In this document: piece by piece, positions 2,127 through 25,820 of the stretch
Layout of the letters: each line of letters begins with the position of its first letter
Numbering within the stretch: the stretch's first letter is position 1
NCBI GenBank assembly: GCA_964608955.1
Contig: CAZSQC010000004.1
Coordinates: 1-35,392, forward strand
DNA from: an uncultured Planctomycetales bacterium
Lineage (GTDB): Bacteria; Omnitrophota; Gorgyraeia; Gygaellales; Profunditerraquicolaceae
DNA: 35,392 bases
Direction of reading: 5' to 3'
The notes under the pieces: generated by a model
Told to the model about the DNA's origin: nothing
The model's input: the letters and a program-made list of their open reading frames with translations, nothing else
Database searches by the model: none
Program-made: the position numbers and the translations under genes

Positions 2127-3045
2127 CTCTCGCCTGATCCACTAAAAATAAAACCGCCATGCGTACTGCGATACCGTTTGTAACCTGGTCTAAAATTACT
2201 GAATTTTCTCCGTCTGCCACCTGACTGGACATCTCGATCCCGCGATTAATAGGCCCGGGGTGCATTACTACAATATCCTTTTTGGCTTTCTTTAACCTTT
2301 CATGCGTTATGCCGAATTCTTTAAAATACTCCAACTGTTTTGGAAAAGCAGTCTCTCCGTCGCGTTCAAACTGCATACGCAGAACATTAACCGCATCGGC
2401 ATTCTTCAGCGCCTCTTCTATATCATAAGTCACCTTTACGCCAAAACCCTCTATTCCGACAGGAATGAGCATTTTAGGGGCGCAAACAGTCACCTTTGCG
2501 CCCAGTTTGGTCAATCCCCACATATTTGAACGCGCAACGCGCGAATGAGCGATATCTCCCACAATACTGACATTTAAACCTTCGATTCTGCCCAGCTTTT
2601 CCTTAAGGGTAAAAATATCCAGCAGCGCCTGGGTAGGATGCTCATGCCAGCCGTCTCCGGCATTGACCACGCTTAAATTTACATGTTTTGCGAGCATAAG
2701 CGCAGCCCCGGAACAGTTATGCCGCATAACAATAATATCCGCTTTAAGCGCCTCGATATTGCGCCCGGTATCAATAAGGGTTTCCCCCTTTTTAACGCTG
2801 GAGGTCTCGGTAGCAATATTAATCACATCCGCCGAAAGCCTTTTGGCAGCTACTTCAAAAGAAACGCGCGTACGCGTAGAAGGCTCATAAAATAAATTTA
2901 CCACTGTCTTCCCGCGAAGGGCAGGAACCTTTTTTATTTCCCTGCTGGAAACTTCTTTAAAAGATTCGGCGGTTGATAAAATCAGCCCTATCTCTTCTCT
3001 GTTAAGTTCTTCTAACCCTAGCAAGTCTTTTCTGTTCCAGGTCAT
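2101..3045 (-). CDS. pyrB: aspartate carbamoyltransferase catalytic subunit
   Basis: 314 aa with the carbamoyl-phosphate binding motif [21 protein letters not shown] and HPGPINRG. It has a 4-nt ATGA overlap with pyrR and a 26-nt overlap with pyrC. Confidence 0.92.
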
Positions 3046-3578
3046 TTTTCGAGAATTACTACTTCTTCTGTTCCGTCGGTCTCGGATAAACGCACTTCCA
3101 CGGTTTCGTTCTTAGCAGTAGGAATATTTTTACCGACGTAGTCAGCGCGGATAGGGAGCTCCCGATGCCCGCGATCGGTCAAAACCGCAAGCTGTATTGA
3201 TTTAGGCCTGCCGAAGTCTATTAAAGCATCTAAGGCAGCGCGGATAGTCCTACCGGTGTACAGAACATCGTCAACAAGTATCAATATTTTATCGTTAATG
3301 TCAAAATCTATTTCGGTCTTTCTCACCAAGGGCTGGCCTGAAGCTAAGGCCAGATCATCGCGGTATAAAGTAATATCCAATGCGCCGGATAGAACGTCAA
3401 CCCCTTCAATGCTTTTAATCGCATCTGCAAGACGCTTAGCAAGATAAACTCCGCGGTTTCTTATCCCCACTATACAGAGATCCCGGGTCCCTTTGTTTTT
3501 TTCGACTATTTCATGCGCTATCCTCATCAAGGCGCGGTTAATCCCGTCTTTATCCAGAATTTTAGCCTTTTCTTTCAT
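3042..3578 (-). CDS. pyrR: bifunctional pyr operon regulator / uracil phosphoribosyltransferase PyrR
   Basis: 178 aa with PRTase motif [22 protein letters not shown]. Length and N-terminus are PyrR-like. It is first in the pyr operon and is preceded by a PyrR-type attenuator. Confidence 0.9.
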
Positions 3579-3869: not shown

Positions 3870-3897
3870 AGTATAACACGGGAGAGGTATTTGTCAA
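3870..3897 (-). promoter_or_regulatory. sigma70-type promoter of the pyrR operon
   Basis: Minus strand reads TTGACA (3897..3892), a 16-nt spacer, then TGtTATACT (extended -10, hexamer 3875..3870). Confidence 0.65.
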
Positions 3898-3905
3898 GTC
3901 TAAAT

Positions 3906-3977
3906 TCTTAAAAAGGGGCGCTAATATTCGGGGCCTTCTTATTGGCTGATAAACCTTTTTGGAAGGATCAGCGCCCC
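3906..3977 (-). terminator. candidate intrinsic terminator of the giant ORF
   Basis: On the minus strand, GGGGCGCT (3977..3970, overlapping the TAG stop) pairs with AGCGCCCC (3922..3915) and is followed by TTTTTAA. An inner CCTTC/GAAGG pair is also possible. The enclosed region is unusually long at 47 nt, so confidence is modest. Confidence 0.4.
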
Positions 3978-6900
3978 TAATTTATCAAAACCGGCTCTTT
4001 TTCTGAAACCCGCATTTTCATTAGTTCCTCCTTGATTTGAGCTGCGGGTTTCTCGGATTCAAGCAAAACTAATAGCTGCTTAAGAGAGCTTTCGGTTGAA
4101 ACACAACGCTCTTCCTCCAGCCTTAAGATGTCGGCTATGCAGCTTAAAACCAAACCTAATCTTTCCTTGCAATCATCGGATTGACATGAAAATAGAATAT
4201 ACTCTCTCATGCGCTCAATGGAAGGAATAATCTTTCCGTTCAGCATATTTTGAATCTTATTCCACTCCATATCTAGCTCTAAAGCATCTTTTTTAACCAC
4301 AAGTTTACCTGGGGTGGTTAAAAAGGCTCCGCCTGGAATAGGCTGCGTATTTATCGGAAGGGAACGGAAGTCTATTCCTCCCTTTTTCCCCTCTTCTTCC
4401 CCCGTAACCGGAATAGCGTCCGGACTGCTCTCTTCCGGAAGATCGAACAGAAACTCTTTCAATACCTCATCCAGCGATCTAACAAAAAATCTTTCTGTCC
4501 CAAAAGCAATTTTTTTCTTTTCCAGAACATCCTTCTTTATTTCCAGCTTCTCTTCATGTGTTAAGTGCCGTGAAATCTGCTGTATAACCCATAGCGAATC
4601 CTCATCAAACTTCCAACCGGTTTTCTCCGCCTTAGTCCTGGTATACAAAACAGCGCAATAATCTATTACTCCTTGTATGGCGTTTTTATTCTCTTTTATC
4701 CATTGCTCTAGCTCCTTTGGATTAGACCTGAATCTTTGAGCATCAGGCATAGTTAAAATCCTATTCACATAGTTTTCATAATCCTGCGGGGTCCTAAAAT
4801 AAATTCTCGCCCTGCCGTCTCTTGTAACTAACAATAAAGCGGTGTGCTTAAGGGGCACGTTTATCTCCGGATGGCCGTAAAACAGGTACCTCCCTGCCTC
4901 ATAGTTACGCACATAATCACGCAAATCAAGAGAAGATTCTCCGTTAACCATCACCGAAACCCCTTTAATCTCTGACCTAGACCTACCGGCTCTTCTCTTC
5001 CAAGGAGCAAAGTCAATATTGTCATAAAAGCGCATTGCTGTAAAAACATCCGCTAGCTCCTCTGGAGACCTGATTACGTTTACCTCCGCTAAATCCCTGG
5101 CAATGATTACTTTTTGTTCTCCGAGTAGCATCTGAACTAAGTCCGAACCGCCGCCATATACTAATTCGTCTTTATCTTCAAGTTCAACAAGTTTAACGAA
5201 AAATGGATCTATCTGGCTAGCATCCACCTCTACTGACCAGGTAAACCAACCGTCTCTCTGTGCACGCGTTCCTTCAATAAAACCCGTTATTATTGCAGGA
5301 GGGTTAACTTTTTTAAGCTCTCCTGATAAGCGAGAGTCTCTTTTTGGAGCTGTTTCACGGACACCTCCTAAGGCAACAGCTGCACTGGAACTTCTTGGGC
5401 TTGACTTTTCTTTTAAGAAAGCCGTTATTTTCCCTGACGGATCAATTCTTTTCCAAGCGGGCTGGGCTTGTAAATCCGTTATTCTACTGTGTATATTCTC
5501 TGCTAGATCCTGCGATTTCCCGGTATAAACAAATCCTTGCTCCGGATCGCTCACCCAGGCACGATACCCTTGATTTTCTGATCCGGTAATCATGATATTA
5601 TCGGGCCTTAAATCAAATACATCTACCAGCCCTGTTGATTCATCAAGCATACGCTCAAAAAGCTCAATCACTGCCTTCATCTGCTGATCATTAAGAGGCC
5701 CTAATTGATCGAGCCTTTTATCCAGCTTAGTAGTAACGATAAAATAAAATCCTTCGGCGTCTTCATTTATGAAACCGGAGTCTACAATATCTGGAGAAAT
5801 GCCTTTTCTTGAGAAAAGTTTCCATGCGGAAATATTAGCATTCCTGCCTGGCTTATTCATCACTCTCAAAACATGTCTGCCATCCGGAAGAGCAAAAACA
5901 AAATTAAACATCCCTCCTCCTAAAGGCTTTCCTAAAGATACCCCGTCCAAAGAGATGTCGCCTTCGTCATCTATTTTTATTCTGCGGGAATACGATCCCT
6001 CCCCGCTATCTTCACCTGCTTGGATGTCTCCTCCTAACCCCCTTCCATCAGCTAGTTCTCTTGCCTGACGCTGGTCACGGGCAAGTAAAACCGGAGCTAA
6101 GGCATCGCGTATCCTCTGGGACTGCTCTGGATGCATGGCTTCTGCCATCATGCCAACATGATGAGCCTGCGCATCATTTAATCCTGACTGAATCGCAAAT
6201 GCTTCTGCTATATCGTGAATTAAGATTCTTTCAGCTGCTGCTTTTCTTTCTTGGGGGTTAAGGCTTGAACCGTTAAGGAGGGAGTTTATTTTATCTTGGT
6301 TTACCGAGACTACGCTGCCGTCTGCGCTGACAGAGACGTAAGAGTCCTGGAGATTATTAATAACGATACGTATCTGCCTGCCGTTTACAGTAACTAATCC
6401 CGAGACAACCGTAACTACGCCCTGGCTATTGACGCTTACCGGTATAACCAGGCTACCGCTATTAAGCGCATCTAATACTGTATCTGCGTAACTGCCCAAT
6501 AATTCCAGATTTCCTGTTTCTACCTGTCCGGGGGCGCCTATTGCTTCAGGGGCTCTTTCTGAAGAAAGGCCCTTCTCACTAATATCCTGCGCACTCCCGC
6601 TCGCATCTTTCTTATTATCCGTAACAATCTCTTTCTTAGCTGTAATGATTGTAAAAGGAACCCCCGTTTCTGAGACAAAAAAACCGTTCTCCGCAAGAAT
6701 ACGCCTTGACTCGCTCCTTCCTTCCCTATATAAAGGTATATCTTCATCCTGGCTGTCAGGAACTATGTCTTCATCTATAGGGGTAAGGTGGCCTCCGTTT
6801 ATAATAAGTGCTAGCTGCGGCAAGCTGGCAATCATCTCCAAAGCAATAACATTAGCTTTGCCGTATACCTCGTGAGGGCCTATATTCACTAATGCTACCG

Positions 6901-9900
6901 CGGGCCTGCTTCCTAAATCATAAGAACCCAAGATATTTTTTAGCTCCGGATCTGCTAAATCCTTCTGAACAATCTCTACCCTTTCACTCTCCTGCGACAA
7001 TAGAATTCTTGACCTGGCAACGCTCTGGGCATTATTCTCAATAAGCACCGCTTTCCTTGCTCCCAGTCTGAGCGCAACTAATGAAAGAAGCCCATCCCCT
7101 GCGCCGGCATCAAAAACAACAGCGTCATTAAAATTGCCTGCGTTAGATATCATGGAAGCTATAACTAAAAGAGCATACCGGCTTATCGGCTGTATGGAGG
7201 TGGCATCATAAAAAGTAGGCACTACGAAAATAACATTTCCTTTATATTTCTCATAAAGCTTAGAGGATTTTAGTTTATTCTGTTTCTCCAGAACCTCTCT
7301 CTTAAGGCCTTCTAAGTCACCACTCTCCCTAGTATCTCCAATAACAACAAAAACAATTGGTCCGAAACGGACAACCCGCGCAGCGCCCTCATGAGTTGCA
7401 TCGGATTCAATAGCATATTCATACCCTCCAGCTTCAAGAGTGCGCGGGAAATAGTCATCGATTTTTTTACCGCCTAAAATACTGTTCACTTCTTCTGCCA
7501 AGGCATGCGCTTCCTGATCCGTAACTTTGGTCATTATCCTCAGGCTTTCTTTCTCTTCTGCTGAACCGCTGGGCTGAGAATTTATAACCAAGCTTGCCAT
7601 TTTCACTGCTTGCTCGCTCACTCTTACAACCTCCCTCCTATAGGAAAGGAGTTCCTCATACCTGTACAAATTAGGATCTTTGCTCGACAAAATACTCTTT
7701 ACAGCCGCTGCCGCATATGATTGCAGGTTAAATACATTAATATCCAAACCTAAGCCATATAAATAATTTTTAATTTCATTTGTAATTAATCCGGGATTAA
7801 CCCGATACATAATATGATAATAATAAAACACCATTATTCTGCTAAAAACCTCTTCCGTCGTACCAAGAAACAAGGCTTCGGAGTCTGTTTCTTCTCCTAA
7901 AGCTATTTTAGCTGCCTCTTCCTTAAAGTAACTCCTGAACAATAAGTGCCCCAAGACTTCATGGAGGATAAGAATATCTTTTGCCGCTGGGTTGATTACC
8001 ATCCCGGAAGAAGTTTTCTCCAAAAGGCTTATATCTACAGCAAGGTAAGCCTTGTCTTTCACTCTCGCCAGCCTAACTTTAAACAAAGGAATATTTGTTC
8101 CGACGGCAGAATTTACAAATTTAATCTCCGGCAATCTTAAACCGCTGATCCCAAGCCTGCTTAGCCAACGGGAAAGATACTCCTTAAGGTCTTTTTCTGC
8201 ATCCGGGATTTCTTCTGCCTTGCCAATCAAGCTTTCGTCTATATTGGACCTGTTGGTCCTTTTACGCATAGTTCTGGCTGTTAATATATAATTTTCGTGC
8301 TCGATCTGCCTGCGCTCAATCTGTCCGTGAAGTTCATCGGCAATAAAGTCGGCCAGCTCTTCCGGAGACTTCATAAAACGCGTAACCTTAATAAACTCAT
8401 TCTTATTCTGCTGATTAATCTCAAGCGGGGGAAGGTTCGCGCGCATCAGGTAATAATCCATAAGCAGCTTCGCCACCCTTCTGTTACCGTCGGAAAAATA
8501 CTGTAGATCAGTAAGGGCAAAGTAAACTAAAGCGGCCTGCATTACGGCAGGCATGCTCTTAAATTCTCCCCCTGCAACATAGAGAGATAAGTTCTGCATA
8601 GCCCTCTTAAGGTCATCTCCTCCTCTTAAAAATCCTTTTACTCTGTCCGTATGTTCAACGTCATGCATACGCATCTTCCCCGCAGAAAAACCGCAAAGGC
8701 TTCTGGCTGCCACTGAATGCAACTGCTCGACATGCTTCATAAAACTGAAGATGTCATCTTCAATAATTACGCCTTTTTCAATCCAATTGTTTACCAACCT
8801 GGACGCGTCATTGATATCCCGCATTTCGCTATGAGGGATATCTTTACGGGCGCTGTTAAGATACTCCAGAATATTCATGTATGCTATCTTGTAATTAATG
8901 CGATCATGGAAATAATATTCAAAAAGGCTGGTAATTTTAGATCTTAAATTAAAGGTATCGCGCACTTTCCAGTCCGAACGCTGATTGATATAGACGTCCC
9001 AGAAAATATTTCTCCAAGGAGCAAGATAAATAACCGTAGTAAAAATTACTATGGGTTTATTTAGGATATAGTCAAAAATCCTTTTGACGCTTTCTTTATC
9101 GCTTATCTGGCTTGTTTTTCGTGCGAATACTTTCGCGAATACTACCGGGTCAAAGAACGGGGCAGGGGAAAACGGTTCCGGATTAGGATTATGGGGAAAT
9201 GCCTCCGGGTTCATTAATGCGGCCAGGTGCATCTTCTTTAAATCTTCTACTATTTCCTCTGCTATTTCCTCTTCCGAAGATGTAAGGGAAATCTGAAGGA
9301 CCAACTGCCTGGCATGCCTTCTGTCTCTTTCTATAAGAAGCGGGGACAAAGCATCCCTGATTTTCTGCGAATTAGCGGGGTACATCGCTTCAGCCATCAT
9401 CGCGGAAAAATGGCTATCCGCTAAAGTATTTCCCAGCTGCAACGAATATGCTTCCGTAATTTCGTGTATTATAATCCTCTCTAAAGCATTTATTCTTTCC
9501 GCGACGCTAAGGCCCGTATTTACAAACATCTGATTAATTTTTTGAAGGTTTAAATGCACCTCTGTTCCGTCTGCACTGACAGACCCCAGCAATAACTGTC
9601 TATTATTAATTACTATTTTTATCCTGCGGTTCTCCACATTAAGAACCATTTCTCTCAAAGAAAGCTCCCCGTTAGTATTGCTTACTACGGGGAAAACCAA
9701 AGCGCCTTTTTTAAAAGCTTCGATTACCGTGTCAGCCGGCAGGCCCAGGGAATCTAAATCGCCGGTAGAAACAACCCCGGAAGCGTACTCAAAGTGCCCT
9801 CTATTTTTTTCAAAAATCTCAAGTAGCTCGTTATCTCCTAACTTACCAACTTCTTCTTTAGACACTCCCAGCAAAGATGCAATTGTCTCCTGTGTTGATT

Positions 9901-12900
9901 CGAGCTCTTCGGCAGTCTTGGAATCTGCGAAAATACTTAATAATACTTCGAATGCAGACCGCGCGCCAACGCTATCCCTCCCTGATTTTATATAGGAGGA
10001 AAGCGCATAAACAACAGAAGAATACAGAGAAGGCTCATTCTTAAAGATTTCCCTTAGGCTCTGAAAAGCAGATTCCGGAACCAAATCCGGGCTTATTTTA
10101 GTGGCTGACTGTATATATTTTATGTAATCAATGCTATCGGTAATAGAATAAGTTGCATCCCTTCCTTTAAGCCCCTCGCTTACAATTCTTCCGCGCAACT
10201 CAATGAAATCTCTGGCAAAATTATCAGCCTCCTGGTTAGGCTCGCCTTGCTGCTTATGGTAAACGTTTGCATAGATTAGAACCTGCCCAGACATGTGTTT
10301 AATCACCCTATTGATAAAGTTTTTATCCTGGATACTTATCCCGTCCGAAATCATCCCGTTAATTACGTTAATAAGAATACTGAGATTATTCCAATTGATA
10401 GTAAGCCTTACGGCTCCTGTTTCATCTTCTACGGAACCTTCTTCAAATAATATATCCTGCAAGCCGCTTAAATCATAACCTTTAACTAATGCTTCAATTT
10501 GGGCGTATAAATGATTATCCTTGGTATTCCTGCTTATTTGTCTTCGGTCCGGCGCTCCCTCTTGCTGCTTCGAAGAAACAGGCAGTTTTATAGTTAGGGG
10601 GCCTTTCTTGGAAATATCACCGCTTGCGGCGGGAGAAACTTCTTCTGTTTTCTGTTCTGGTAAAGCCTCTCTATGAGAAAAGATAAAAAACGTAAGAGGA
10701 AATGCGGCTATTGCTGCTATTGCCAGACGGATAACCATGCTGCGCCTCTTATTTCCGGCAGAGCTATTTTCTCCCCCATACCCCCTTCCATCAGCTAGTT
10801 CTCTTGCCTGACGCTGGTCACGGGCAAGTAAAACCGGAGCTAAGGCATCGCGTATCCTCTGGGACTGCTCTGGATGCATGGCTTCTGCCATCATGCCAAC
10901 ATGATGAGCCTGCGCATCATTTAATCCTGACTGAATCGCAAATGCTTCTGCTATATCGTGAATTAAGATTCTTTCAGCTGCTGCTTTTCTTTCTTGGGGG
11001 TTAAGGCTTGAACCGTTAAGGAGGGAGTTTATTTTATCTTGGTTTACCGAGACTACGCTGCCGTCTGCGCTGACAGAGACGTAAGAGTCCTGGAGATTAT
11101 TAATAACGATACGTATCTGCCTGCCGTTTACAGTAACTAATCCCGAGACAACCGTAACTACGCCCTGGCTATTGACGCTTACCGGTATAACCAGGCTACC
11201 GCTATTAAGCGCATCTAATACTGTATCTGCGTAACTGCCCAATAATTCCAGATTTCCTGTTTCTACCTGTCCGGGGGCGCCTTCAAAAGAATTGGATTCT
11301 TTTAGAACCCCGGAGACAAGCGGATACCTGCTTCTTATAATCGGCTTAAGTTTTTTCTCGAATTGCGTACCCCTTTCAGTAACGGACAGGAATATTTCTT
11401 TTATAATATTATTGTCGTCGAAAAAGGCCGGCTCATGTTCGTGGCCTAAGTGCAGATTCTTTAACGTTGCAGGGACATCCGCGTCTACCAATACCGCATT
11501 GACAAATATGATGGTGGGGCCTTTGACCTGTGCAGGCCTTACATTGTCTACTTCTGCAAGTGGCTGCCTGTTTTCACGCAGAATAGACCTTAATCCTCCC
11601 GGATTCCAAAACATAAAGTCATAATAAAGCTTTTCTCCCGATATCCTTCTTAAAATAGCGGCGATTTTATTTTTCAGCCTTAAAAAGTCTTCGCCGAAGG
11701 CAGAAACAAAAGTGCGATCCTTACCTAATAATTCGCCTCTGTTGCGGGCAGCCTGATCCCCTAAGATACTTCCGATAGCCTCGTTAAAAGCCAAAGCAAA
11801 ATTTCTATATCCCTGATATGCGTCTGGATATCTTCCGCGCTTTCCTTCGTCTCCTTCGCGGTCTACCAAATGCTGCGTTCCGTCAACAACTACCATAATG
11901 GGTTGGTTATTTACTAAATACTCCAGGTCTCCTTCGCTAAAGAGGTCCTCCCTAAACACCCAAGGATTTTGATGGCTCTCCGTAGAGCCTATCTTTGTCC
12001 TTATTATTCTGACTCCCCGGCGCGCAAGCTCCTCTTCTATGATATCGATAACAAATCCGCCGTAACTCATATTTGCCACAACTACAACCTCTCTGTTAAC
12101 CGCTCTACCCTGGCTTATTAATTTATCTATAAATTCAAGGAGCCTCTTTGCTTCGAATATGGCATAATCAACCTCTGCTATTTCCGCCGCTCCCAGATGC
12201 ACCTCTCCGGGACGGTGCTCCCCGCTGATAAACTGCCTGTAGTTGTTATAATTTGCCCTGTTTAGGCCAAAACCGTTCTCCAACAACACTGCCACAAAAT
12301 GCGAGTATTCTACATCAATATAAAGAGCTTTTCCCTGTGGATCGTTAATTTTATCAAGCCGGAATCCGCCTTCAGAAATAGCTCTTTTTACCCTTGCAAA
12401 ATCTTCCAGCGCACCTTTTAAATCCTTCTTTCCGAAAGCATATTCCACTAGCCCTTCGGTAGGAATAAACCCTGCCCCCATAATAGCAATGGCTATCTCT
12501 ATCTTTTCCGGACTCAAAAGAATGCTTTTATAATGCCCGAAGTTCTCAATGAATATTTCTGCGATAGAATTATTCCCGGATTTCATTATCCCCTCAAAAA
12601 GTTTCTCTGCGGAGGCCAAGGTCGAAGCAAAGCTTACCGGGCTAAGTTCAGAAAAATGCCTTATACAATTACGTAGTGCGATATTGATCAAAGCCTGATG
12701 TTCTTTTCCGGGGAACTTTTTAGTTAGAGATGTTTTAAACTCTAAAAATGCACGGACCTTTTCTTTTAAAGCCGGAAGATTTCTCTCGTGCTCGCAAAAA
12801 GACCAGAGATAAGTCTCAGCCGACTCTAAATATATGTCTGCCGCACTCATCTCCTTAAATAATAAAGCGAGCTCCAAGAAAGTACGCTGCAGATTATCGG

Positions 12901-15900
12901 CTCCAGGGCTCAGCTTATTAGCCATATCAAACACCGCTACCCAAACCGACTTGGAGAAGAGCATTTGTACATCTTTGTCATCAAGAGCATCCATTAATCC
13001 TGACATAGCGTTCATATAAACAGCGAACAACTTGCCTTCTTTTTCCCCAAGCATTTCTGAAAGTTTCTGCATAAAATTATAGATGACATATTCCGGAATA
13101 TTTTCACTGAGACGCTTCTCCGATGTAATCAGAAAACGGTGTAAGGCCGCGACATTGTTTTTTAATTCTTCGGCGGTGTCGCTATGATTAACGGCATTGG
13201 CTAGTCCGTGTGAACCTCCATAAGATTCATCAAAAAGGTTGTCATCTCTTCTTGAAATAAACTCCGCGGCAAAGTTAAATACCGCATCACAAGCTAAAGT
13301 TGCTTGCGCTGATTTGCTGGAGAAGAGAAACTGCACTATAATATCCAAGATACTCTTAGCTACGCTAAGCGCGCGATGATGCGCAATTCGCGCAGCATTA
13401 GAATCTCCTTTGTGTTTTAGAGAATATATATTTAAAATTTCTTTGGTTTTATTATATACTTTATCGAGAAACGCTTTTAGCTCTTCCTCTCTTTTAGCTT
13501 TATCCGGGATGTTTTCAAGCATACGGTCTGCGATACCCATAACCCTGGATAGAAAAGAAGGTAAATATAACTCGGAGTATTCCATTTCTCCGAATTCTTC
13601 TGTAATGGAACCTGTAAATCTTAATAGCATCTCGGAATAAGATAAGAACTCTTTCTTATCTTCGGTCTCCTCTAAGATTCTGGAAAACCCGAGATAGACA
13701 AAACCGTACCTAGAGTAAGATTCGGTGATATATTTACCAAAGAGGCCCAAGTGCGCTTCTAGCTCAGAGACACTGCTTAAGAACCTCAAGTGCGAAGACA
13801 AAAGTCTTTCTAAATCCCACTTCTCTTTTACTTTCTCGGCGTGGGATTTTAAGAATTCCTCGAGCACCGTTGTTACCCTTTCTGTGCTTTCTCCTGTGCG
13901 TGATATAAAGCTGCGAAACTCTTCTCTCGCAGCAACCTTTTGAAGAACTTCCGAGACCTCTCCTTCTCCTTCGTATCCTACTCCGTCTTTACCCCAGGCA
14001 TCTAATCCTCCGTATTCTATCCTGGCTCCTGCGCTACGGTCAGAAGTTAAAGAACCCCAAAGCTTATGCATTGCCTCGCGTAACTGGCTGTCTTCTCCTA
14101 TCGCCTCTGCTTCTGCGATCATTCCTTCTGTATGCGCTTCTTTCGCACTTAAACCCCTGCCAATAGCAGCATCTTCCGCCATTTCATGCTGCCTTAAGAC
14201 ATTCGCCACCTTAAGAACAATAGGGTCATCTTCCGCAACCCCTAGCACAGAAGCAATCTCTCTGGTATTAACGATAATTTCTCCGCGCGCATTTACCCTA
14301 ACAAATCTTCCGTCGATTCTTCCGGCGAGGTTTTTCAATACAGCTTGCCCTCCCTTGACAGAGGTTGTTTCAGGAGGTCCTCGGCGAGAATCAACCTTAG
14401 CCATAAAAGCATTGAGGCTATTAATAAAATACTCGGTAAAATCAGTTATCGGCTTTTCATTTCCGGCATTACCTCCCAGATTCCAGAACATATTTCTTCC
14501 TTTACTAAGGAAAAGGTCTTTTATTTCTTTTTTTGACATGGAATTTACAAGAGCATGGGCATCTTCCAACAAGCCCAACGCATCCTTTCTGAAGGCCGGA
14601 TGCTTAAGAACCTCGTCAAAAATAAAATTATCCGTTCCCGGTGCCCCGTAATCTTTAAAACCGTACTGCGACATAATCATCGCCAGAAAAAGCAATCTAT
14701 GCTGTGCATTAGCAGATTTTCCCCCTATATACAGCCTATTATCTCCGATATCAACCATTACCGCTTCCTGGTTCCCCTTACGGATAATAAAATTGCCTCC
14801 ATGCATGTCACGCGGAGCCATGCCTCCTAATCCGAAAGTTATAGTAAGGAGGGCGTAAACAATGCTCCTGCGTAAGCGCTCGGTAAGTAAACCCTTATTA
14901 AGTAACCCCTGGGCTGTTTCTCCTTCAATAAACTCCTCGATATACCAACGCCTTCCGTCGGCAGAGACACCGCTCCAGGCGAATTTAGGCACTCCTCTCC
15001 CGTCTAGCCTCTTAAGGTTTTGCAACTCATGGGAAGTGATATCGTTTTTCCCTACTTCCTTCTTGGCCGCCAGAAGTATATTTATCTTTTCTCCAGATAC
15101 CAACGCAAACTGCATCCTATAAACATATTTGTGTGCGCCTTCAGCGAAATAGGAAAGATCCACATCCTGTGAAATATCAGCCCATTGGAGATCTTTAATA
15201 CCGGATATTTTGCGTAATATTGACAGCAGGTCCTCCCTCGAAATCCCGGTAATTAAATCCCTTGAAACGCTTAACAGTGTATTATATTTCTCCCAGGATC
15301 TTTCATCGGTTGAGTCAAAATCAAATTTTGCGATATGGATATTTAGTTTATGACTTACGGGGGCTGCTTCAGTACTGCGCCCAGACGCAACGGATTGAAC
15401 TGGCGCGCTTTCATTTAATACCGTCAGAAGAATGATTAAATCGAGCATCTGCTGCTGGGCATTTAGACCTAAGAAATCCTCCTGTCTATCTGCCTCAACG
15501 CCTTGGCCGGATTCGCGCTGCCTACTAAGCCAGAGCTCATGCAGCGCTTCCCCGGCAGCTAAGACAACCTTACCTGCGGGATTCGTCCCGAATTGAGCGC
15601 TTAATTTCTGTCCATTCTTTAATTGTTGCAGTGCGGATTCTAATGCCCTGCGAAATTCTGCTGTTGAGATGCCCGCAGTCTTTATTAATTCAAGAGCCCT
15701 TCTTACTGACGCAATATTATCATTCTGTATGCGTTCAGGAAGAGCAGCAAAACTTACTACCCTTGATATATCTATTCCGTCTTCAACGTTAACTCCCGCG
15801 CCTAAGGCCAGCTGAGTTGCCAGATGCACTTTCCATGCCAGCTTCTTTTCTTCTCCCGAAGCAGTATCCTGCTGCGTTGCAATGACCTTTGCTCTTGGCA

Positions 15901-17053
15901 AAGGGACCCCACTAGCTTCTATAACATGTCCGTTAGCAAGGCCCGCTGGCAAAGCGCTATTTCCGGGGCTTACTACCTGCGCAACGGTATCGAGGTTGCC
16001 TATTGCAATGCCTCCCGAATAGTAACTTCTTAAAACCCGGCCAAAAGCCGATTGCTGGGAGACTTTATAATTATATTCGCCATCTTTAAATGACTTCTGG
16101 TACTCTTTAAAATAATCATCTTTTAGCCAGGCATCCTTTGAATAAAACCTGTTGATGTCTTTCCCGTCAATCATAGAAGCATAAAACCCATCGGTACCGC
16201 GGAATTTTTTCTTAAACCACTGCGCTAATATTAAAGAATAGTAGACCTGCCTTAACCTGGCGTAGCGCTTCGATGTATTAATTTCCCTGCTAATGTTCGG
16301 AATTATTGTCTCTTTAAGAATTTCTGCGGCATATTCATTTAGCTGCTTAAGGCGTTCATCTTTAAAACTGTAGTCTGCCCCTCCCGGGAAAGGATTATTT
16401 TTGTTCAGATAGTCCTGTTCCAGCATTACTTTTAATGTTGCTTTATAGATATAGGCATTTTCACTTGTTTCCCGGATTATAATTTCATCGGGGACAATCC
16501 AAGGCCGGATTAGTGTCGGTATGGTCACGTTCTGGCTTCCGAAAAGCTCCTCTGCCTTCGCGTAAAGCCTTTCCCAGTATTGCTTTCCTTCCGGTGTCTC
16601 GGGAGAGGTCGCTTTAGCGGTATCTTTTTTTAACTGGACGTCCGCCTCCAGAAAAACTTTTCCGATATCGGTTTTTTCAACAAGGGGGTCGATAATATTA
16701 CCCGGCGAATCGGGCCTTAAATTAACCCAGAAGGAATCATTAGGAAGACTTATGCCGATAAGAAAAAAGCTTAGCAGCTCTTCCGTTGCTTTCTCGGCAG
16801 AAGGCCTTGATAAATTTTTCAGGTTTTCCTTATCAAGAAGAAGCTGAAAGTTATTCGTTGCCGGGCTATACTGCATAAACCTTAAGTGGACGGGACGGAA
16901 ACTGGAGGGGAAAAAGGTATTTCTGAAGGCTGTAAGCTGCCGGGAAATATCAAGCTGTCCCGCAATTTGAGCAAAACCCGATTGCTCAAAAGAAAGTAAC
17001 AAGCATAGAGAAATGGCAATTAACTTTAGGAAAAAAGATTGTTTTATTTTCAT
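3977..17053 (-). CDS. giant multidomain protein (4358 aa) with signal peptide; function unknown (two kinase-like, one Fic-like, one SAM-MTase-like domain and 4 copies of an unassigned module)
   Basis: The ORF is an uninterrupted 13,077 nt. My residue count was cross-checked against nucleotide anchors at six motifs, and each codon matched. Domain evidence is listed in the sub-features below. Confidence 0.95.
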   Translation of the reverse strand: MKIKQSFFLKLIAISLCLLLSFEQSGFAQIAGQLDISRQLTAFRNTFFPSSFRPVHLRFMQYSPATNNFQLLLDKENLKNLSRPSAEKATEELLSFFLIGISLPNDSFWVNLRPDSPGNIIDPLVEKTDIGKVFLEADVQLKKDTAKATSPETPEGKQYWERLYAKAEELFGSQNVTIPTLIRPWIVPDEIIIRETSENAYIYKATLKVMLEQDYLNKNNPFPGGADYSFKDERLKQLNEYAAEILKETIIPNISREINTSKRYARLRQVYYSLILAQWFKKKFRGTDGFYASMIDGKDINRFYSKDAWLKDDYFKEYQKSFKDGEYNYKVSQQSAFGRVLRSYYSGGIAIGNLDTVAQVVSPGNSALPAGLANGHVIEASGVPLPRAKVIATQQDTASGEEKKLAWKVHLATQLALGAGVNVEDGIDISRVVSFAALPERIQNDNIASVRRALELIKTAGISTAEFRRALESALQQLKNGQKLSAQFGTNPAGKVVLAAGEALHELWLSRQRESGQGVEADRQEDFLGLNAQQQMLDLIILLTVLNESAPVQSVASGRSTEAAPVSHKLNIHIAKFDFDSTDERSWEKYNTLLSVSRDLITGISREDLLSILRKISGIKDLQWADISQDVDLSYFAEGAHKYVYRMQFALVSGEKINILLAAKKEVGKNDITSHELQNLKRLDGRGVPKFAWSGVSADGRRWYIEEFIEGETAQGLLNKGLLTERLRRSIVYALLTITFGLGGMAPRDMHGGNFIIRKGNQEAVMVDIGDNRLYIGGKSANAQHRLLFLAMIMSQYGFKDYGAPGTDNFIFDEVLKHPAFRKDALGLLEDAHALVNSMSKKEIKDLFLSKGRNMFWNLGGNAGNEKPITDFTEYFINSLNAFMAKVDSRRGPPETTSVKGGQAVLKNLAGRIDGRFVRVNARGEIIVNTREIASVLGVAEDDPIVLKVANVLRQHEMAEDAAIGRGLSAKEAHTEGMIAEAEAIGEDSQLREAMHKLWGSLTSDRSAGARIEYGGLDAWGKDGVGYEGEGEVSEVLQKVAAREEFRSFISRTGESTERVTTVLEEFLKSHAEKVKEKWDLERLLSSHLRFLSSVSELEAHLGLFGKYITESYSRYGFVYLGFSRILEETEDKKEFLSYSEMLLRFTGSITEEFGEMEYSELYLPSFLSRVMGIADRMLENIPDKAKREEELKAFLDKVYNKTKEILNIYSLKHKGDSNAARIAHHRALSVAKSILDIIVQFLFSSKSAQATLACDAVFNFAAEFISRRDDNLFDESYGGSHGLANAVNHSDTAEELKNNVAALHRFLITSEKRLSENIPEYVIYNFMQKLSEMLGEKEGKLFAVYMNAMSGLMDALDDKDVQMLFSKSVWVAVFDMANKLSPGADNLQRTFLELALLFKEMSAADIYLESAETYLWSFCEHERNLPALKEKVRAFLEFKTSLTKKFPGKEHQALINIALRNCIRHFSELSPVSFASTLASAEKLFEGIMKSGNNSIAEIFIENFGHYKSILLSPEKIEIAIAIMGAGFIPTEGLVEYAFGKKDLKGALEDFARVKRAISEGGFRLDKINDPQGKALYIDVEYSHFVAVLLENGFGLNRANYNNYRQFISGEHRPGEVHLGAAEIAEVDYAIFEAKRLLEFIDKLISQGRAVNREVVVVANMSYGGFVIDIIEEELARRGVRIIRTKIGSTESHQNPWVFREDLFSEGDLEYLVNNQPIMVVVDGTQHLVDREGDEGKRGRYPDAYQGYRNFALAFNEAIGSILGDQAARNRGELLGKDRTFVSAFGEDFLRLKNKIAAILRRISGEKLYYDFMFWNPGGLRSILRENRQPLAEVDNVRPAQVKGPTIIFVNAVLVDADVPATLKNLHLGHEHEPAFFDDNNIIKEIFLSVTERGTQFEKKLKPIIRSRYPLVSGVLKESNSFEGAPGQVETGNLELLGSYADTVLDALNSGSLVIPVSVNSQGVVTVVSGLVTVNGRQIRIVINNLQDSYVSVSADGSVVSVNQDKINSLLNGSSLNPQERKAAAERILIHDIAEAFAIQSGLNDAQAHHVGMMAEAMHPEQSQRIRDALAPVLLARDQRQARELADGRGYGGENSSAGNKRRSMVIRLAIAAIAAFPLTFFIFSHREALPEQKTEEVSPAASGDISKKGPLTIKLPVSSKQQEGAPDRRQISRNTKDNHLYAQIEALVKGYDLSGLQDILFEEGSVEDETGAVRLTINWNNLSILINVINGMISDGISIQDKNFINRVIKHMSGQVLIYANVYHKQQGEPNQEADNFARDFIELRGRIVSEGLKGRDATYSITDSIDYIKYIQSATKISPDLVPESAFQSLREIFKNEPSLYSSVVYALSSYIKSGRDSVGARSAFEVLLSIFADSKTAEELESTQETIASLLGVSKEEVGKLGDNELLEIFEKNRGHFEYASGVVSTGDLDSLGLPADTVIEAFKKGALVFPVVSNTNGELSLREMVLNVENRRIKIVINNRQLLLGSVSADGTEVHLNLQKINQMFVNTGLSVAERINALERIIIHEITEAYSLQLGNTLADSHFSAMMAEAMYPANSQKIRDALSPLLIERDRRHARQLVLQISLTSSEEEIAEEIVEDLKKMHLAALMNPEAFPHNPNPEPFSPAPFFDPVVFAKVFARKTSQISDKESVKRIFDYILNKPIVIFTTVIYLAPWRNIFWDVYINQRSDWKVRDTFNLRSKITSLFEYYFHDRINYKIAYMNILEYLNSARKDIPHSEMRDINDASRLVNNWIEKGVIIEDDIFSFMKHVEQLHSVAARSLCGFSAGKMRMHDVEHTDRVKGFLRGGDDLKRAMQNLSLYVAGGEFKSMPAVMQAALVYFALTDLQYFSDGNRRVAKLLMDYYLMRANLPPLEINQQNKNEFIKVTRFMKSPEELADFIADELHGQIERRQIEHENYILTARTMRKRTNRSNIDESLIGKAEEIPDAEKDLKEYLSRWLSRLGISGLRLPEIKFVNSAVGTNIPLFKVRLARVKDKAYLAVDISLLEKTSSGMVINPAAKDILILHEVLGHLLFRSYFKEEAAKIALGEETDSEALFLGTTEEVFSRIMVFYYYHIMYRVNPGLITNEIKNYLYGLGLDINVFNLQSYAAAAVKSILSSKDPNLYRYEELLSYRREVVRVSEQAVKMASLVINSQPSGSAEEKESLRIMTKVTDQEAHALAEEVNSILGGKKIDDYFPRTLEAGGYEYAIESDATHEGAARVVRFGPIVFVVIGDTRESGDLEGLKREVLEKQNKLKSSKLYEKYKGNVIFVVPTFYDATSIQPISRYALLVIASMISNAGNFNDAVVFDAGAGDGLLSLVALRLGARKAVLIENNAQSVARSRILLSQESERVEIVQKDLADPELKNILGSYDLGSRPAVALVNIGPHEVYGKANVIALEMIASLPQLALIINGGHLTPIDEDIVPDSQDEDIPLYREGRSESRRILAENGFFVSETGVPFTIITAKKEIVTDNKKDASGSAQDISEKGLSSERAPEAIGAPGQVETGNLELLGSYADTVLDALNSGSLVIPVSVNSQGVVTVVSGLVTVNGRQIRIVINNLQDSYVSVSADGSVVSVNQDKINSLLNGSSLNPQERKAAAERILIHDIAEAFAIQSGLNDAQAHHVGMMAEAMHPEQSQRIRDALAPVLLARDQRQARELADGRGLGGDIQAGEDSGEGSYSRRIKIDDEGDISLDGVSLGKPLGGGMFNFVFALPDGRHVLRVMNKPGRNANISAWKLFSRKGISPDIVDSGFINEDAEGFYFIVTTKLDKRLDQLGPLNDQQMKAVIELFERMLDESTGLVDVFDLRPDNIMITGSENQGYRAWVSDPEQGFVYTGKSQDLAENIHSRITDLQAQPAWKRIDPSGKITAFLKEKSSPRSSSAAVALGGVRETAPKRDSRLSGELKKVNPPAIITGFIEGTRAQRDGWFTWSVEVDASQIDPFFVKLVELEDKDELVYGGGSDLVQMLLGEQKVIIARDLAEVNVIRSPEELADVFTAMRFYDNIDFAPWKRRAGRSRSEIKGVSVMVNGESSLDLRDYVRNYEAGRYLFYGHPEINVPLKHTALLLVTRDGRARIYFRTPQDYENYVNRILTMPDAQRFRSNPKELEQWIKENKNAIQGVIDYCAVLYTRTKAEKTGWKFDEDSLWVIQQISRHLTHEEKLEIKKDVLEKKKIAFGTERFFVRSLDEVLKEFLFDLPEESSPDAIPVTGEEEGKKGGIDFRSLPINTQPIPGGAFLTTPGKLVVKKDALELDMEWNKIQNMLNGKIIPSIERMREYILFSCQSDDCKERLGLVLSCIADILRLEEERCVSTESSLKQLLVLLESEKPAAQIKEELMKMRVSEKEPVLIN
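5519..5947 (-). other. protein-kinase-like domain 2 (aa ~3703-3845)
   Basis: It contains the Gly-rich loop LGKPLGGGMFNFVF, the catalytic loop VFDLRPDNIMI (D-L-[KR]-P-x-N as in Hanks-type kinases, codons verified at 5614..5600) and a downstream WVSDPEQ as a possible DFG equivalent. Confidence 0.55.
6037..6539 (-). repeat. R module copy (aa 3506-3672); 503-bp perfect direct repeat, downstream copy in gene orientation
   Basis: It is identical to 10780..11282. Identity stops sharply at both ends. Flanking codons are I/E on the N-terminal side and L/Y on the C-terminal side, after which only weak protein similarity continues (LGGDIQAG... versus YGGENSSAG...). Confidence 0.97.
6644..7246 (-). other. 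class I SAM-dependent methyltransferase domain, PrmA-like (aa ~3270-3470)
   Basis: Motif I is VVFDAGAGDGLLSLVALRLGA (codons verified at 7117..7109). The acidic post-I motif is KAVLIENN. AVALVNIG resembles the PrmA VVANI motif. Confidence 0.7.
8414..8851 (-). other. Fic/DOC-like domain with degenerate active-site motif (aa ~2735-2880)
   Basis: The motif region is ALVYFALTDLQYFSDGNRRVAKLLMDYYLMRANLPPL (codons 8503..8468 verified). Against the canonical H-x-F-x-[DE]-G-N-G-R-x-x-R it reads Q-Y-F-S-D-G-N-R-R-V-A-K, so the catalytic His is Gln, Gly8 is Arg and the last Arg is Lys. Confidence 0.6.
9302..9784 (-). repeat. R module, diverged copy (aa ~2424-2584)
   Basis: It aligns end to end with the perfect copies at about half identical residues by eye: ADTV, LV.PV, I.IVINN, SVSADG, KIN, ERI.IH[DE]I.EA, MMAEAM.P..SQ.IRDAL.P.L..RD.R.AR.L. 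The H-E codons were verified at 9466..9461. Confidence 0.85.
10679..10738 (-). other. internal hydrophobic, signal-anchor-like segment (aa 2106-2125)
   Basis: NKRRS-MVIRLAIAAIAAFPLTFFIF-SHREALPEQKTEE. The 20 residues are almost entirely hydrophobic (one Arg near the N-terminal end), with a basic N-flank and an acidic C-flank. The Met codon is at 10738..10736 and is preceded by AAGAGG plus 6 nt. Confidence 0.6.
10780..11282 (-). repeat. R module copy (aa 1925-2091); 503-bp perfect direct repeat, upstream copy in gene orientation
   Basis: It is nucleotide-identical to 6037..6539 by my line-by-line comparison. The offset is 4743 nt (3 x 1581), so the repeat is in frame. The identical 66-aa shadow ORFs on the plus strand (10804..11004 and 6061..6261) confirm it. 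Confidence 0.97.
14045..14356 (-). repeat. R module, most divergent copy (aa ~900-1003)
   Basis: VLRQHEMAEDAAIGRGLSAKEAHTEGMIAEAEAIGEDSQLREAM aligns with ILIHDIAEAFAIQSGLNDAQAHHVGMMAEAMHPEQSQRIRDAL of the other copies. The shared pattern is H-[DE]-x-A-E, AI, GL, AH, GM-x-AEA, Q-x-R-x-A. It is preceded by a beta-like stretch, FVRVNARGEIIVN. Confidence 0.6.
14729..15160 (-). other. protein-kinase-like domain 1 (aa ~632-775), APH/RIO/ABC1-like
   Basis: It contains EGAHKYVYRM (nucleotide-loop region), ILLAAKKE (beta3 Lys candidate), a YIEEFIEGE hinge, a PRDMHGGNFII catalytic loop (D-x-H-x-x-N as in HADPHPGN/HGDLHPGN families) and VMVDIGDN (DFG-like). The codons for D-M-H were verified at 14809..14801. 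Confidence 0.55.
16967..17053 (-). other. N-terminal Sec-type signal peptide of the giant protein (aa 1-29)
   Basis: MKIKQSFFLKLIAISLCLLLSFEQSGFAQ|IAG has a basic n-region, a hydrophobic core and a small-residue G-F-A cleavage-like site. Confidence 0.7.
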
Positions 17054-19747: not shown

Positions 19748-19756
19748 AAATTTTAA

Positions 19757-19831
19757 TGACCCTGACGGGATTTGAACCCGTGTCGAGAGCTTGAAAAGCT
19801 CTTGTCCTAGACCAGGCTAGACGACAGGGTC
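19757..19831 (-). tRNA. tRNA-Glu (anticodon UUC)
   Basis: The 75-nt minus-strand sequence is GACCCTGTCGTCTAGCCTGGTCTAGGACAAGAGCTTTTCAAGCTCTCGACACGGGTTCAAATCCCGTCAGGGTCA. The 7-bp acceptor stem is GACCCTG/CAGGGTC, the anticodon stem AGAGC/GCTCT closes loop TTTTCAA, and the T-loop is GGTTCAAATCC. No CCA is encoded. Confidence 0.9.
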
Positions 19832-19835
19832 AAGC

Positions 19836-22269: not shown

Positions 22270-23058
22270 TTAACTTGCTACTTCCTTAAGTTTATTATAA
22301 AGCATTACAAAAATACAAACGGTAAGAGGTATTACCAGCGAATTTGTCAGCATGTTCTGATAAATAATAAGAACTGCCGGCGCCCTCATTGTAAAAAGAA
22401 AAAGCGGCAGCAACACTAGAAGATATAAAGCCATAACCAACAGGAATTCGGCAACAACCGCGTTAACCCGGCTTTTAATCAAATTAAAGCTTGTCTTAAT
22501 AGAAACGAGCGGGCCGCTGTTTTCAGAAGCGCAGGATACTTGAGCAAGGGCCAGTCTAATCGCAAAATAAACTGCCCCGGCTATGCATATGGCTATAAGC
22601 GAACCGAAAAGCGCGGAGCCTAAGAAAACATTCTGCATTTTTGGAAAATTAACTACCAGCCCCGCAGCAAGGAAGAGGCCGACGATAGAAATTCCGCCGA
22701 CAATTAGGCTGCTTAATAAGACTGTTGAAATAAATTTGAGGAATACTCTACCGGGTGCTTTCATGGCCGTAATCAGGCTAATTTGCTCTTTCCTCTGGAT
22801 TGCCTGGGCAGCTAAAATAAGGCTCGCCATAACCCAAGTGTCAAAAAGCCAGCGCACAATACCTACAAGTATTCCCAAAAAACCTGTTTTCAGCGGCAGG
22901 GGAACAACAAAAATCTGCGCGGATTCAATCGGCAGATGAAAAATAAGATAAAGCCCCGCGAGCTTCAGCCAGCTCGTTTTCCAATCTATTATGCCCTGTA
23001 GAAAAATTGACCAGGGTTTTATTTTTTTGTCTTTTAAGCTTTCGGTTAAGTCTTGCAT
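22270..23058 (-). CDS. polytopic membrane protein, function unknown
   Basis: 262 aa with about six hydrophobic helices by eye ([93 protein letters not shown]). It is packed between gyrB and gyrA, with 1 nt separating it from the gyrA start. I recognise no family signature. Confidence 0.7.

Positions 23059-23085: not shown

Positions 23086-25820
<2,735 letters not shown>

Follow-up and report, generated by a model that had tools for sequence, protein, structure and literature searches.

The window analysed here is a stretch of 35,392 nucleotides (nt) from an uncultured Planctomycetales bacterium whose GTDB lineage is Omnitrophota (contig CAZSQC010000004.1), and the subject of this report is a module of about 165 amino acids (aa) that is repeated inside one giant protein encoded on its minus strand. 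The giant protein contains exactly four copies of the module, c1 to c4. They stand at the junctions between blocks of enzyme-like cargo, their family is rare, a small set of their residues is invariant, their fold is modelled with confidence and the DNA of c2 and c4 has been converted to identity. We propose that the module may be a zincin-derived peptidase, built into the protein for its processing, which also serves as a recombination joint; this is the reading we favour, while giving it somewhat less than an even chance. We infer metal binding, proteolysis and the sites of cleavage. To our knowledge, the Omnitrophota carry the longest bacterial genes known. Whether their giant proteins are cleaved is explicitly an open question (bioRxiv 10.1101/2023.11.21.568195). 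The module offers a handle on that question, being short and confidently modelled, with five conserved residues and candidate cut sites on both sides.

Four module copies and the cassette junctions

The earlier note on this DNA had described four copies of the module between window positions 6037 and 14356, which correspond to aa 900–3672 of the 4358-aa open reading frame (ORF), and the count was borne out. BLASTP and phmmer searches with each copy against the whole protein recovered exactly four, and a profile built from 19 instances found no fifth in the giant protein at relaxed thresholds. At the protein level, c2 and c4 are 98.8% identical across 171 aa, c3 is 48% identical to c2 and c4 (E ~1e-44), and c1 is 31–35% identical to c2 and c4 across ~81–116 aa (E values of 5e-7 to 2e-6). 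The DNA sequences of c2 and c4 agree at all 503 nt (100% identity) from the G-A-P-G codons exactly to the D-G-R-G codons, and the identity falls to 18–35% in the 60 nt on each side. The DNA of c2 and c3 is just 53.5% identical, so c3 is an old duplicate. Judged from these DNA identities, the array consists of old duplicates plus a single gene conversion or duplication of very recent date, whose edges match those of the module. Since the exact identity of c2 and c4 is bounded by the unit, recombination acts on the module.

It is very improbable that c2 and c4 are merely a collapsed or chimeric join, made during assembly in a gene that truly holds three copies or another order of cargo. A perfect repeat of 503 nt with its copies 4743 nt apart can mislead short-read assemblers, and no independent copy of the window contig is on record. 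However, the distance equals 1581 codons and is in frame, the ORF is uninterrupted over 13 kb, the flanks are unique and coding on all four sides, and c1 and c3 are independent, diverged copies. Several copies are also present in relatives, two in P0008 and three in L006 (relatives are named here by our own handles). Such an error would alter the copy number alone, not the nature of the module.

An exhaustive HMMER search of 1.84 billion representative proteins with a profile of the window copies gave 22 matches at E ≤ 1e-3, including six with E values under 1e-30. About 20 look genuine; P0016 and P0019, which are repeat-rich and match weakly, are likely false positives. The remaining matches are mostly very long proteins (1300–5800 aa) or fragments of these, mostly unannotated, and the labels among them include one Candidatus Omnitrophota and one plain 'bacterium'. 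A scan of one genome per species (185,579 species) yielded a single locus, on a 5-kb contig of a metagenome-assembled genome (MAG), whose label of 'uncultured Clostridia' we do not trust given the Omnitrophota evidence. The metagenome scan yielded five loci with the module. Viral contigs gave no matches, and a phage origin was rejected. Word-indexed homologue searches with c2 alone and with the 19-sequence alignment returned nothing, though relatives sit in the same collection; this null therefore reflects a limit of the search method and not absence. The earlier note had been unable to assign the module to a family, and by sequence this stands, as no match was found in Pfam, NCBIfam, PHROGs, PADLOC or the PDB sequences. 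Term searches of bioRxiv 10.1101/2023.11.21.568195 and bioRxiv 10.64898/2026.06.07.730766 found no mention of the module (as a metallopeptidase-type or linker module) or of the N- and C-terminal domains that the family shares.

Compared by BLASTP with all relatives, the window protein has three parts in common with them: the N-terminal domain, the C-terminal domain and the module. The sole exception is the cargo block of aa 953–1913, found again in P0018 and, in part, in L002. Homology between relatives begins and ends at the module edges. Because the relatives share just these three parts, the module marks cassette junctions, and the placement of each copy at the edge of a cargo block, as given in the earlier note, is confirmed, with these boundaries coinciding with homology breakpoints among related giant proteins. 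The cargo itself varies by protein; for example, P0001 carries a HATPase and a kinase, P0002 carries a HATPase and a GNAT domain, and others carry nothing recognisable. A close relative, with 93% GyrA identity, has a protein of 6603 aa at the same chromosomal position, behind the methylase gene [Table 1]. Its first 373 aa resemble those of the window protein (60% identity), the divergence after this point is complete, and no module was found within the 2385 residues examined. Because the two proteins share only these first 373 aa, the site beside oriC is a hypervariable giant-gene locus. The family is one of polymorphic, cassette-shuffled secreted proteins in which the module marks the internal joints. 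Whether the module is active or not, this is a previously undescribed polymorphic family with conserved N- and C-terminal domains, variable cargo and a hypervariable chromosomal locus.

Conserved residues and predicted fold

Conservation was assessed over 26 aligned instances, comprising the four window copies, 17 from profile matches and five from fetched loci, with a mean identity of ~31%. Both His residues and the Glu of M-x-A-E-A are present in 26 of 26. The residue after the first His is acidic in every instance (15 Glu, 11 Asp), and the Glu at position i+4 is kept in 24. The motif given by the earlier note, H-[DE]-x-x-E ... A-H ... M-x-A-E-A, was correct but incomplete, since the Glu of its last element is invariant as well; the His, Asp/Glu, Glu and His that it had singled out from the window copies are kept across homologues together with this additional Glu. 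The full signature is H-[DE]-x-x-E-x13-H-x6-E, that is, H-[DE]-x-x-E-x20-E with an invariant His 14 residues past i+4. There is no conserved Cys in the module alignment.

Two subtypes can be distinguished. Type A (c2, c3, c4 and most relatives) spans ~165 aa and ends in ...RDxRQAxxLxDGRG-[FYLIM]-GG-[ED]. Type B (c1, P0008a, P0015 and P0018; aa 633–738 in P0008) has lost the greater part of the sheet and terminates in ...MHKLW...AWG...G-Y-x-G-E-G. The cargo block that comes after the type B tail of c1 (VGYEGEG) in the window protein stands behind a type A tail (RGFGGEG) in L002, so the two tails are equivalent. On the N side, type A copies carry an aromatic-x-Gly-x-x-Gly motif (FEGAPG, FEGVQG, FMGANG, FSGTQG and others) ~8 residues ahead of a conserved T-x-D-L. 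Both flank motifs are kept across the subtypes, and both are of low confidence and flexible in the AlphaFold2 models.

The AlphaFold2 model of c2, built with a 19-sequence alignment, has a mean predicted local distance difference test (pLDDT) score of 92.3 and a predicted template-modelling (TM) score of 0.88; confidence is low in the first ten and last ten residues. The order of elements is the F-E-G-A-P-G flank, a helix, a six-stranded sheet region, two motif helices, two C-terminal helices and the tail DGRGYGGE. In module numbering, the first helix comprises residues 7–26, six strands lie between 33 and 78, and a short helix (80–87) precedes the long helix 94–116, which carries H107, D108 and E111. 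A tight turn leads to helix 121–133 with H125 and E132, and helices follow at 140–162. The beta half followed by a helical half, as the earlier note had read the long copies, agrees largely with this model, except that these copies open with helix 7–26 ahead of the sheet. The conserved residues lie mid-helix, at i/i+4 on one helix and i/i+7 on its antiparallel neighbour. Because they are mid-helix on adjacent helices, the modelled arrangement agrees with the expectation for a metal site, not with that for helix caps. The c1 model has 2–3 short strands and the helical hairpin, followed by the disordered tail AWGKDGVGYEGEGE. Its core (residues ~20–115) reaches pLDDT values of 85–97, the tail falls below 50, and the ends are disordered, including the whole G-Y-E-G-E-G tail.

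The earlier note had allowed that the module might map to a purely structural repeat, or that its conserved residues might vary among homologues or cap helices, and none of this was found. No known structural repeat (Ig-like, KOW and others) matched the module significantly. A lead to the Spt5 KOW domain, obtained with a three-copy profile against the PDB sequences (E 0.5–0.9), was dropped as it disappeared with the 19-sequence profile. A hemerythrin-like or di-iron HxxxE site was also set aside, as there are four ligands only and no four-helix-bundle motif repeat.

Structure searches with the c2 model point to minimal zincins. In the PDB, the first rank of Foldseek is RuvA, which is unrelated (E 0.12, probability 0.12). 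Among the next nine, eight are the minigluzincins selecase (4qhi/4qhg/4qhh), proabylysin (4jiu) and projannalysin (4jix), with E values of 0.15–1.5 and target-normalised TM scores of 0.31–0.47; lower ranks include the BlaR1 metalloprotease domain, IrrE/PprI and YbeY. In the viral structure library (BFVD), the top match is a phage 'Peptidase' (E 0.014, probability 0.99, TM 0.55), and further matches include several small uncharacterised phage proteins, SprT-like proteins and IrrE. With the 19-sequence profile, selecase MJ1213 was the best PDB sequence match; its E value of 0.74 is not significant, but its register is correct. In this alignment, the segment ...IKIKI...ASISLTNKTIYINKNIL..LSDEE... 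falls onto the strand-strand-'LsdEE' of the module, just upstream of the His helix. In zincins, a strand-strand segment directly precedes the HExxH helix.

The spacing of the candidate ligands is also similar. Thermolysin-type and M1 gluzincins have the signature HExxH-x19-E or HExxH-x18-E. In the module, the invariant Glu (26/26) lies 21 residues past the second-ligand position, on the next predicted helix, and thus appears to be placed like the third-ligand Glu of gluzincins, which is found on the following helix ~18–25 residues on. The signature of the module reads like that of a gluzincin, HExxH-x19/20-E, in which Glu has taken the place of the second His. In c2, the secondary-structure elements come in an order that fits the zincin fold, with weak fold matches (E ≥ 0.014, TM 0.3–0.55). 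The earlier note had set the motif apart from the zincin HExxH. At the level of the fold, a complete separation of the module from the zincins is probably wrong, as its best neighbours in the PDB and BFVD, weak as they are, are minimal zincins, and the selecase profile match and the spacing agree with them. We regard zincin ancestry of the module as fairly probable. As the defining HExxH is lacking, we did not file the module in any zincin family. An apparent 'HExxE' zincin in the literature seems to be a typographical error for CLCA1, which has His156 and His160 as its ligands.

We compared the module with the known minimal zincins, a list that includes the minigluzincins selecase MJ1213, proabylysin and projannalysin (PDB 4qhf-4qhj, 4jiu and 4jix) and the SprT/Wss1, IrrE/ImmA and M48/M56 cores. 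In its model, the module has, like these, a small alpha+beta plan, in which a helix and a sheet precede the 'active-site' helix and a Glu-supplying helix follows. The C-terminal tail of proabylysin enters its own active-site cleft, and Wss1 cleaves itself (PMC5557861); the module resembles proabylysin in having a flexible C-terminal tail. However, the minimal zincins have HExxH where the module has H-[DE]-x-x-E and an extra invariant His 14 residues on, and the module differs further in its size of ~165 aa, its six strands and its two additional C-terminal helices. The minigluzincins are stand-alone proteins of ~100–110 residues, whereas the module is embedded repeatedly in a giant protein. 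It is not a member of the minigluzincins as judged by its embedding and size, the missing HExxH, the MJ1213 E value of 0.74 and a Foldseek probability of at most 0.54. Nor does it belong to SprT/Wss1, which are marked by HExxH and a third His a little further on, given that HExxH is absent and that 1 of 19 instances matched the Pfam SprT-like model at E 0.02, the level of noise.

A second repeated, junction-like element (...VRLGNQVLIVDNHWQAQSDQEKLDILMHEAMADW...VEAEDIAIDLEG...) was observed in relatives, in P0001 at aa ~1290–1400 and ~3880–3990 and in P0002 at aa ~700–760. It has a strand-'SDQEK'-His-Glu helix layout like that of the module, and the module profile does not pick it up.

A possible processing role and its alternatives

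We suggest the following mechanism. The scaffold would be a compact ~165-aa domain derived from a minimal zincin (minigluzincin, SprT or PVC-metallopeptidase-like), in which the first His and the downstream Glu were kept, the second His was changed to Glu and a new invariant His was gained on the next helix. First, metal would be bound through the H/E/H/E cluster, with H2032, E2036 or H2050, and E2057 as candidate ligands and D/E2033 as the candidate general base (c2 numbering). The module would then act in cis as a processing peptidase. Finally, it would cut in the flexible Gly-rich linkers on its borders, which contain a bulky hydrophobic residue: N-terminally [FY]-x-G-x-x-G, and C-terminally either DGRG-[FYLIM]-GG-[ED] or G-Y-x-G-E-G. 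A hydrophobic S1' preference is common in gluzincins and would suit the bulky hydrophobic residue after Gly in these flanks. As the outcome, the kinase-like, Fic, methyltransferase and other cargo blocks would be freed after export. Since the module is the sole conserved internal sequence, it would also be the homology arm for cassette shuffling. The sole strong internal hydrophobic segment of the giant protein (aa 2107–2125; Table 1) is preceded by NKRRS and lies ~12 residues past the c2 tail, and a cut between DGRG and YGGE would leave a downstream fragment that starts like a signal anchor. Transmembrane segments near the module are also seen in the relatives P0001 and P0009.

A precedent in architecture is the PVC-metallopeptidase (Pfam DUF4157), a minimal zincin-like domain of three strands and three helices with its ligands on helices 2 and 3 (PMC3482391). 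It belongs to the 'releasing peptidases' of polymorphic toxins, proposed to free adjacent variable cargo by autoproteolysis (Zhang et al. 2012; PMC3482391). Like the module, it is built into a large secreted multidomain protein beside variable cargo that is exchanged by recombination at conserved junctions. The signatures differ, HExxHxxQ-E compared with H[DE]xxE-x13-H-x6-E, and the module, unlike the PVC-metallopeptidase, is repeated internally up to four times between cargo blocks. The module is not a DUF4157 member; it has no Pfam match, none of the 19 instances was hit at E values up to 10, and its signature is different. No immunity gene and no PVC, type VI secretion system or Rhs context was found at the locus, which is surrounded by housekeeping genes near oriC. 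A polymorphic toxin of the classic kind, with its immunity gene, was rejected, the downstream genes being pyrR, pyrB and pyrC.

MARTX and large clostridial toxins are very long secreted chains with several effectors (Fic-type and kinase-like among them), in which an in-built protease cuts the linkers. The giant protein likewise is one long secreted chain with several enzymes, and by analogy in-built cutting of linkers is proposed here. The cysteine protease domain (CPD) of these toxins belongs to the clan CD cysteine proteases, with a catalytic Cys-His dyad in a caspase-like fold; InsP6 activates it, and each toxin has one. In contrast, the module has no conserved Cys and a different predicted topology, and there is one at each junction of the window protein; it is not a CPD. 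Furthermore, in contrast to MARTX, RTX repeats are absent from the window protein, and type I secretion genes are absent from its vicinity.

The 'multi-enzyme' giant proteins of the Omnitrophota (West-Roberts et al. 2023; bioRxiv 10.64898/2026.06.07.730766) come from the same phylum as the window protein. They overlap with the present family in their methyltransferase, HATPase, GNAT and kinase-like cargo, their internal transmembrane segments and their mostly 'dark' sequence; the described proteins comprise 30–147 kaa, compared with 4.4 kaa for the window protein. For these proteins, C39 or S8 peptidase domains were proposed as possible processing enzymes (bioRxiv 10.1101/2023.11.21.568195; 10.64898/2026.06.07.730766).

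Several results weigh against an active, zincin-derived peptidase. First, HExxH is absent in all 26 instances, which read H-[DE]-x-x-[E/S] with no second His at i+4. The alternation of Asp and Glu at the general-base position is unusual for active zincins, and two instances have Ser for the second Glu. Second, Foldseek gave no match for the c2 model at E ≤ 0.001; every E value exceeds 0.01, with TM scores of 0.3–0.55 and a PDB probability of at most 0.54. The fold search with the c1 model retrieved unrelated helical proteins and zero zincins. When the module was compared by hhalign with the canonical HExxH segments of the same giant proteins, His-Glu was placed on His-Glu every time, though at a probability below 3% that gives the alignment no weight as evidence, and Pfam zincin models, including DUF4157 and SprT, gave nothing beyond noise against 19 instances. 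Third, type B copies are without most of the sheet that would hold the substrate. In L003 (ORF aa 51–193), a 21-residue in-frame deletion fuses HEITEA to MHP, with loss of the second His, and in L006 (ORF aa 3332–3739) an insert of ~220 aa with hydrophobic segments and HELTH lies in the loop between the motif helices. Lastly, most relatives have a single module copy, and a caspase/C13-like domain in some of them could do the cutting instead.

Many of these features would suit a non-catalytic pseudo-zincin, a metal-stabilised spacer or adaptor that separates the cargo or docks it to a component of secretion or translocation, a receptor or another cassette. Anthrax lethal factor provides a likeness, as its inactivated zincin-like N-terminal domain serves docking. 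The missing HExxH, the Asp or Glu at the base position, the Ser at the E2036 position in two copies, the reduced sheet of type B, the L003 deletion variant and the hairpin-loop insert tolerated in L006 all favour such a role, as do the transmembrane segments that often adjoin the module. It is common for zincins to be 'inactive' through substitutions that are conserved and non-random, and no role has been established for these proteins (PMC3650047). However, four to five invariant polar, ionisable residues at ~30% identity exceed the needs of a spacer, and the change from His to Glu retains a metal ligand, unlike the Lys, Arg or Leu typical of dead zincins (PMC3650047). Nor would a spacer account for the flank motifs that are conserved in the flexible linkers. 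We consider a pseudo-zincin conceivable, if on the doubtful side.

The caspase-like domain bears on another explanation, in which the module is a recognition or cleavage cassette for a different protease, either a domain of the same protein or a separate enzyme, and its conserved residues serve folding or recognition. A caspase/legumain (C13)-like domain with the motif LTIFFxGHGG...NACYSYNF stands directly upstream of the module in P0003 (aa ~900–1060), P0005 (~1130–1290) and P0007 (~1750–1910). An HExxxH element distinct from the module is present at aa 3031 of the window protein, and 'pre-toxin' domains of polymorphic toxins are thought to be processing sites (PMC3482391). However, reading of the sequence found no caspase-like domain in the window protein, no one candidate protease accompanies the module in all relatives, and a mere cleavage site needs no invariant His/Glu cluster. 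This explanation appears improbable.

A similarly small chance is given to the module being a cargo enzyme itself, that is, a small metallohydrolase acting on peptides of prey or host or on cell-wall peptides and repeated for its usefulness. The zincin-like look of the scaffold and the invariant site would fit such an enzyme, and for giant proteins of the Omnitrophota, among whose domains are peptidases, an attack on the envelopes of prey was proposed (bioRxiv 10.1101/2023.11.21.568195). Yet the module is the sole internal element common to proteins with unrelated cargo, it lies exactly at the homology breakpoints, and the DNA of c2 and c4 is homogenised precisely over the unit. The conserved flexible flanks also suggest a role in the architecture of the protein and not an external target.

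If active, the module would add a non-HExxH ligand arrangement to the zincins and would be the metalloprotease counterpart of the MARTX cysteine protease domain. It would be the first of a new kind of self-processing unit if it were a zincin-derived, metal-dependent 'junction peptidase' with a His/Glu/His/Glu site that excises itself at Gly-aromatic linkers and thereby makes true polyproteins, with the same unit serving as the cassette recombination arm beside the replication origin; this fuller proposal is one we put forward with reserve, as less likely than not when taken as a whole. If inactive, the module would stand as a clear example of a pseudo-zincin that is conserved because it serves the architecture as a joint.

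Layout and surroundings of the giant gene

The giant protein consists of a Sec signal peptide, an N-terminal domain, enzyme-like cargo with the four modules and a C-terminal domain [Table 1].

Table 1. Positions of the giant gene, its parts and the related 6603-aa protein (window coordinates unless a relative is named).
Feature	Position	Strand	Details
Giant ORF	3977-17053	minus	4358 aa, single, uninterrupted
Signal peptide of giant ORF	N-terminus		Sec-type, MKIKQSFFLKLIAISLCLLLSFEQSGFA/Q
N-terminal domain, aa 1-373	15935..17053	minus	kept across family, defines it
Module c1, aa 901-1030	13964..14353	minus	type B, shortened; H956-E957-x-x-E960 ... H974 ... E981
Module c2, aa 1925-2095	~10769..11282	minus	full type A; H2032-D2033-x-x-E2036, H2050 ... 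E2057
Hydrophobic, transmembrane-like segment, aa 2107-2125	10679..10735	minus	VIRLAIAAIAAFPLTFFIF; Kyte-Doolittle scan
Module c3, aa 2424-2587	9293..9784	minus	type A; H2530-E2531-x-x-E2534 ... H2548 ... E2555
Fic cargo, aa 2776-2869, between c3 and c4	8447..8728	minus	Pfam PF02661, E 5.8e-6
HExxxH element, aa ~2990-3080	7814..8086	minus	kaylavdisllek...aakdililHEVLGHllf; motif scan, sequence reading
Module c4, aa 3506-3676	~6026..6539	minus	type A; H3613-D3614-x-x-E3617 ... H3631 ... E3638; tail DGRGLGGD
C-terminal domain, aa ~4206-4358	3980..4438	minus	GGIDFRSLPI ... NGxIIPSxERxxEY ... DILRLEEE
6603-aa protein of close relative	L007 15287-22433; L008 11602-18748		JGI Ga0438303_0000234, Ga0438302_0000602

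Neither terminal domain (aa 1–373 and 4206–4358) has a Pfam match. By BLASTP, the N-terminal domain (aa 1 to ~373–400) is 52–62% identical to that of P0001, P0002, P0003, P0015, L002 and L007, and 30–34% identical to that of P0006 and P0007. The C-terminal domain is common to P0001, P0002, P0003, P0013, P0015, P0022 and L003–L006. The two domains may be signals for export, anchoring or sorting. Within the family, the C-terminal domain carries a GGIDF(R/N)xLPI motif, and GGIDLR occurs several times over in P0006.

Pfam found nothing in the whole 4358-aa protein beyond the Fic domain and a weak methyltransferase match at aa 3300–3370, and the remainder is mostly unannotated; PADLOC gave weak kinase-like matches at aa 675–776. 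The Fic cargo also matches FICD in the PDB (E 3e-5) and XopAC/AvrAC in NCBIfam (6.5e-9, far under the family cut-off). Its signature at aa ~2858–2869 (window ~8450–8480) reads Q-Y-F-S-D-G-N-R-R-V-A-K, compared with the expected HxFx[DE]GN[GK]RxxR. Because Gln apparently stands in place of the catalytic His, the domain may be inactive or atypical.

The HEVLGH element lies within the c3–c4 cargo block and has a zincin-like layout with a strand and 'ISLLEK' ahead of it, and it resembles the ...thELIGHisf of P0001. HExxxH is the arrangement of DPP III-type motifs. No database match was found for the element, and its hhalign comparison with the module was not significant. Canonical HExxH mini-elements were observed in relatives, HEIFH in P0005, HELGH in P0009 and HEAYH in L007.

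The neighbours of the giant gene are ordinary chromosomal genes near the replication origin. One side carries dnaA, dnaN, a DciA-like ORF, gyrB, a 262-aa ORF, gyrA, tRNA-Glu, glmS and a gene of the tetrapyrrole-methylase family, and the other carries pyrR, pyrB and pyrC. Past dnaA, on the opposite strand, are yidC, parA, parB, ndk, yicC, gmk and a flavoprotein gene. The GyrA of the window is 86–93% identical to that of many MAGs labelled Candidatus Omnitrophota or Omnitrophica, which assigns the window to an uncultured member of this phylum.

Some minor features of this neighbourhood were also recorded. The 262-aa ORF between gyrB and gyrA (window 22270–23058, minus strand) has no Pfam match and only a weak YciC-like one, and in the relatives L007 and L008 its place is taken by an ORF of 254 aa. 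The GyrB of the window (23086–25536) comprises 816 aa and is intein-free, and the GyrB of L007 (5459–9211) comprises 1250 aa with an intein (Pfam Intein_splicing); the GyrA homologue P0119 (1276 aa) also has intein domains. The tRNA-Glu(UUC) gene lies at window positions 19756–19832 (minus strand) between glmS and gyrA, and a partial tRNA is present at the window edge (35339–35392, plus strand).

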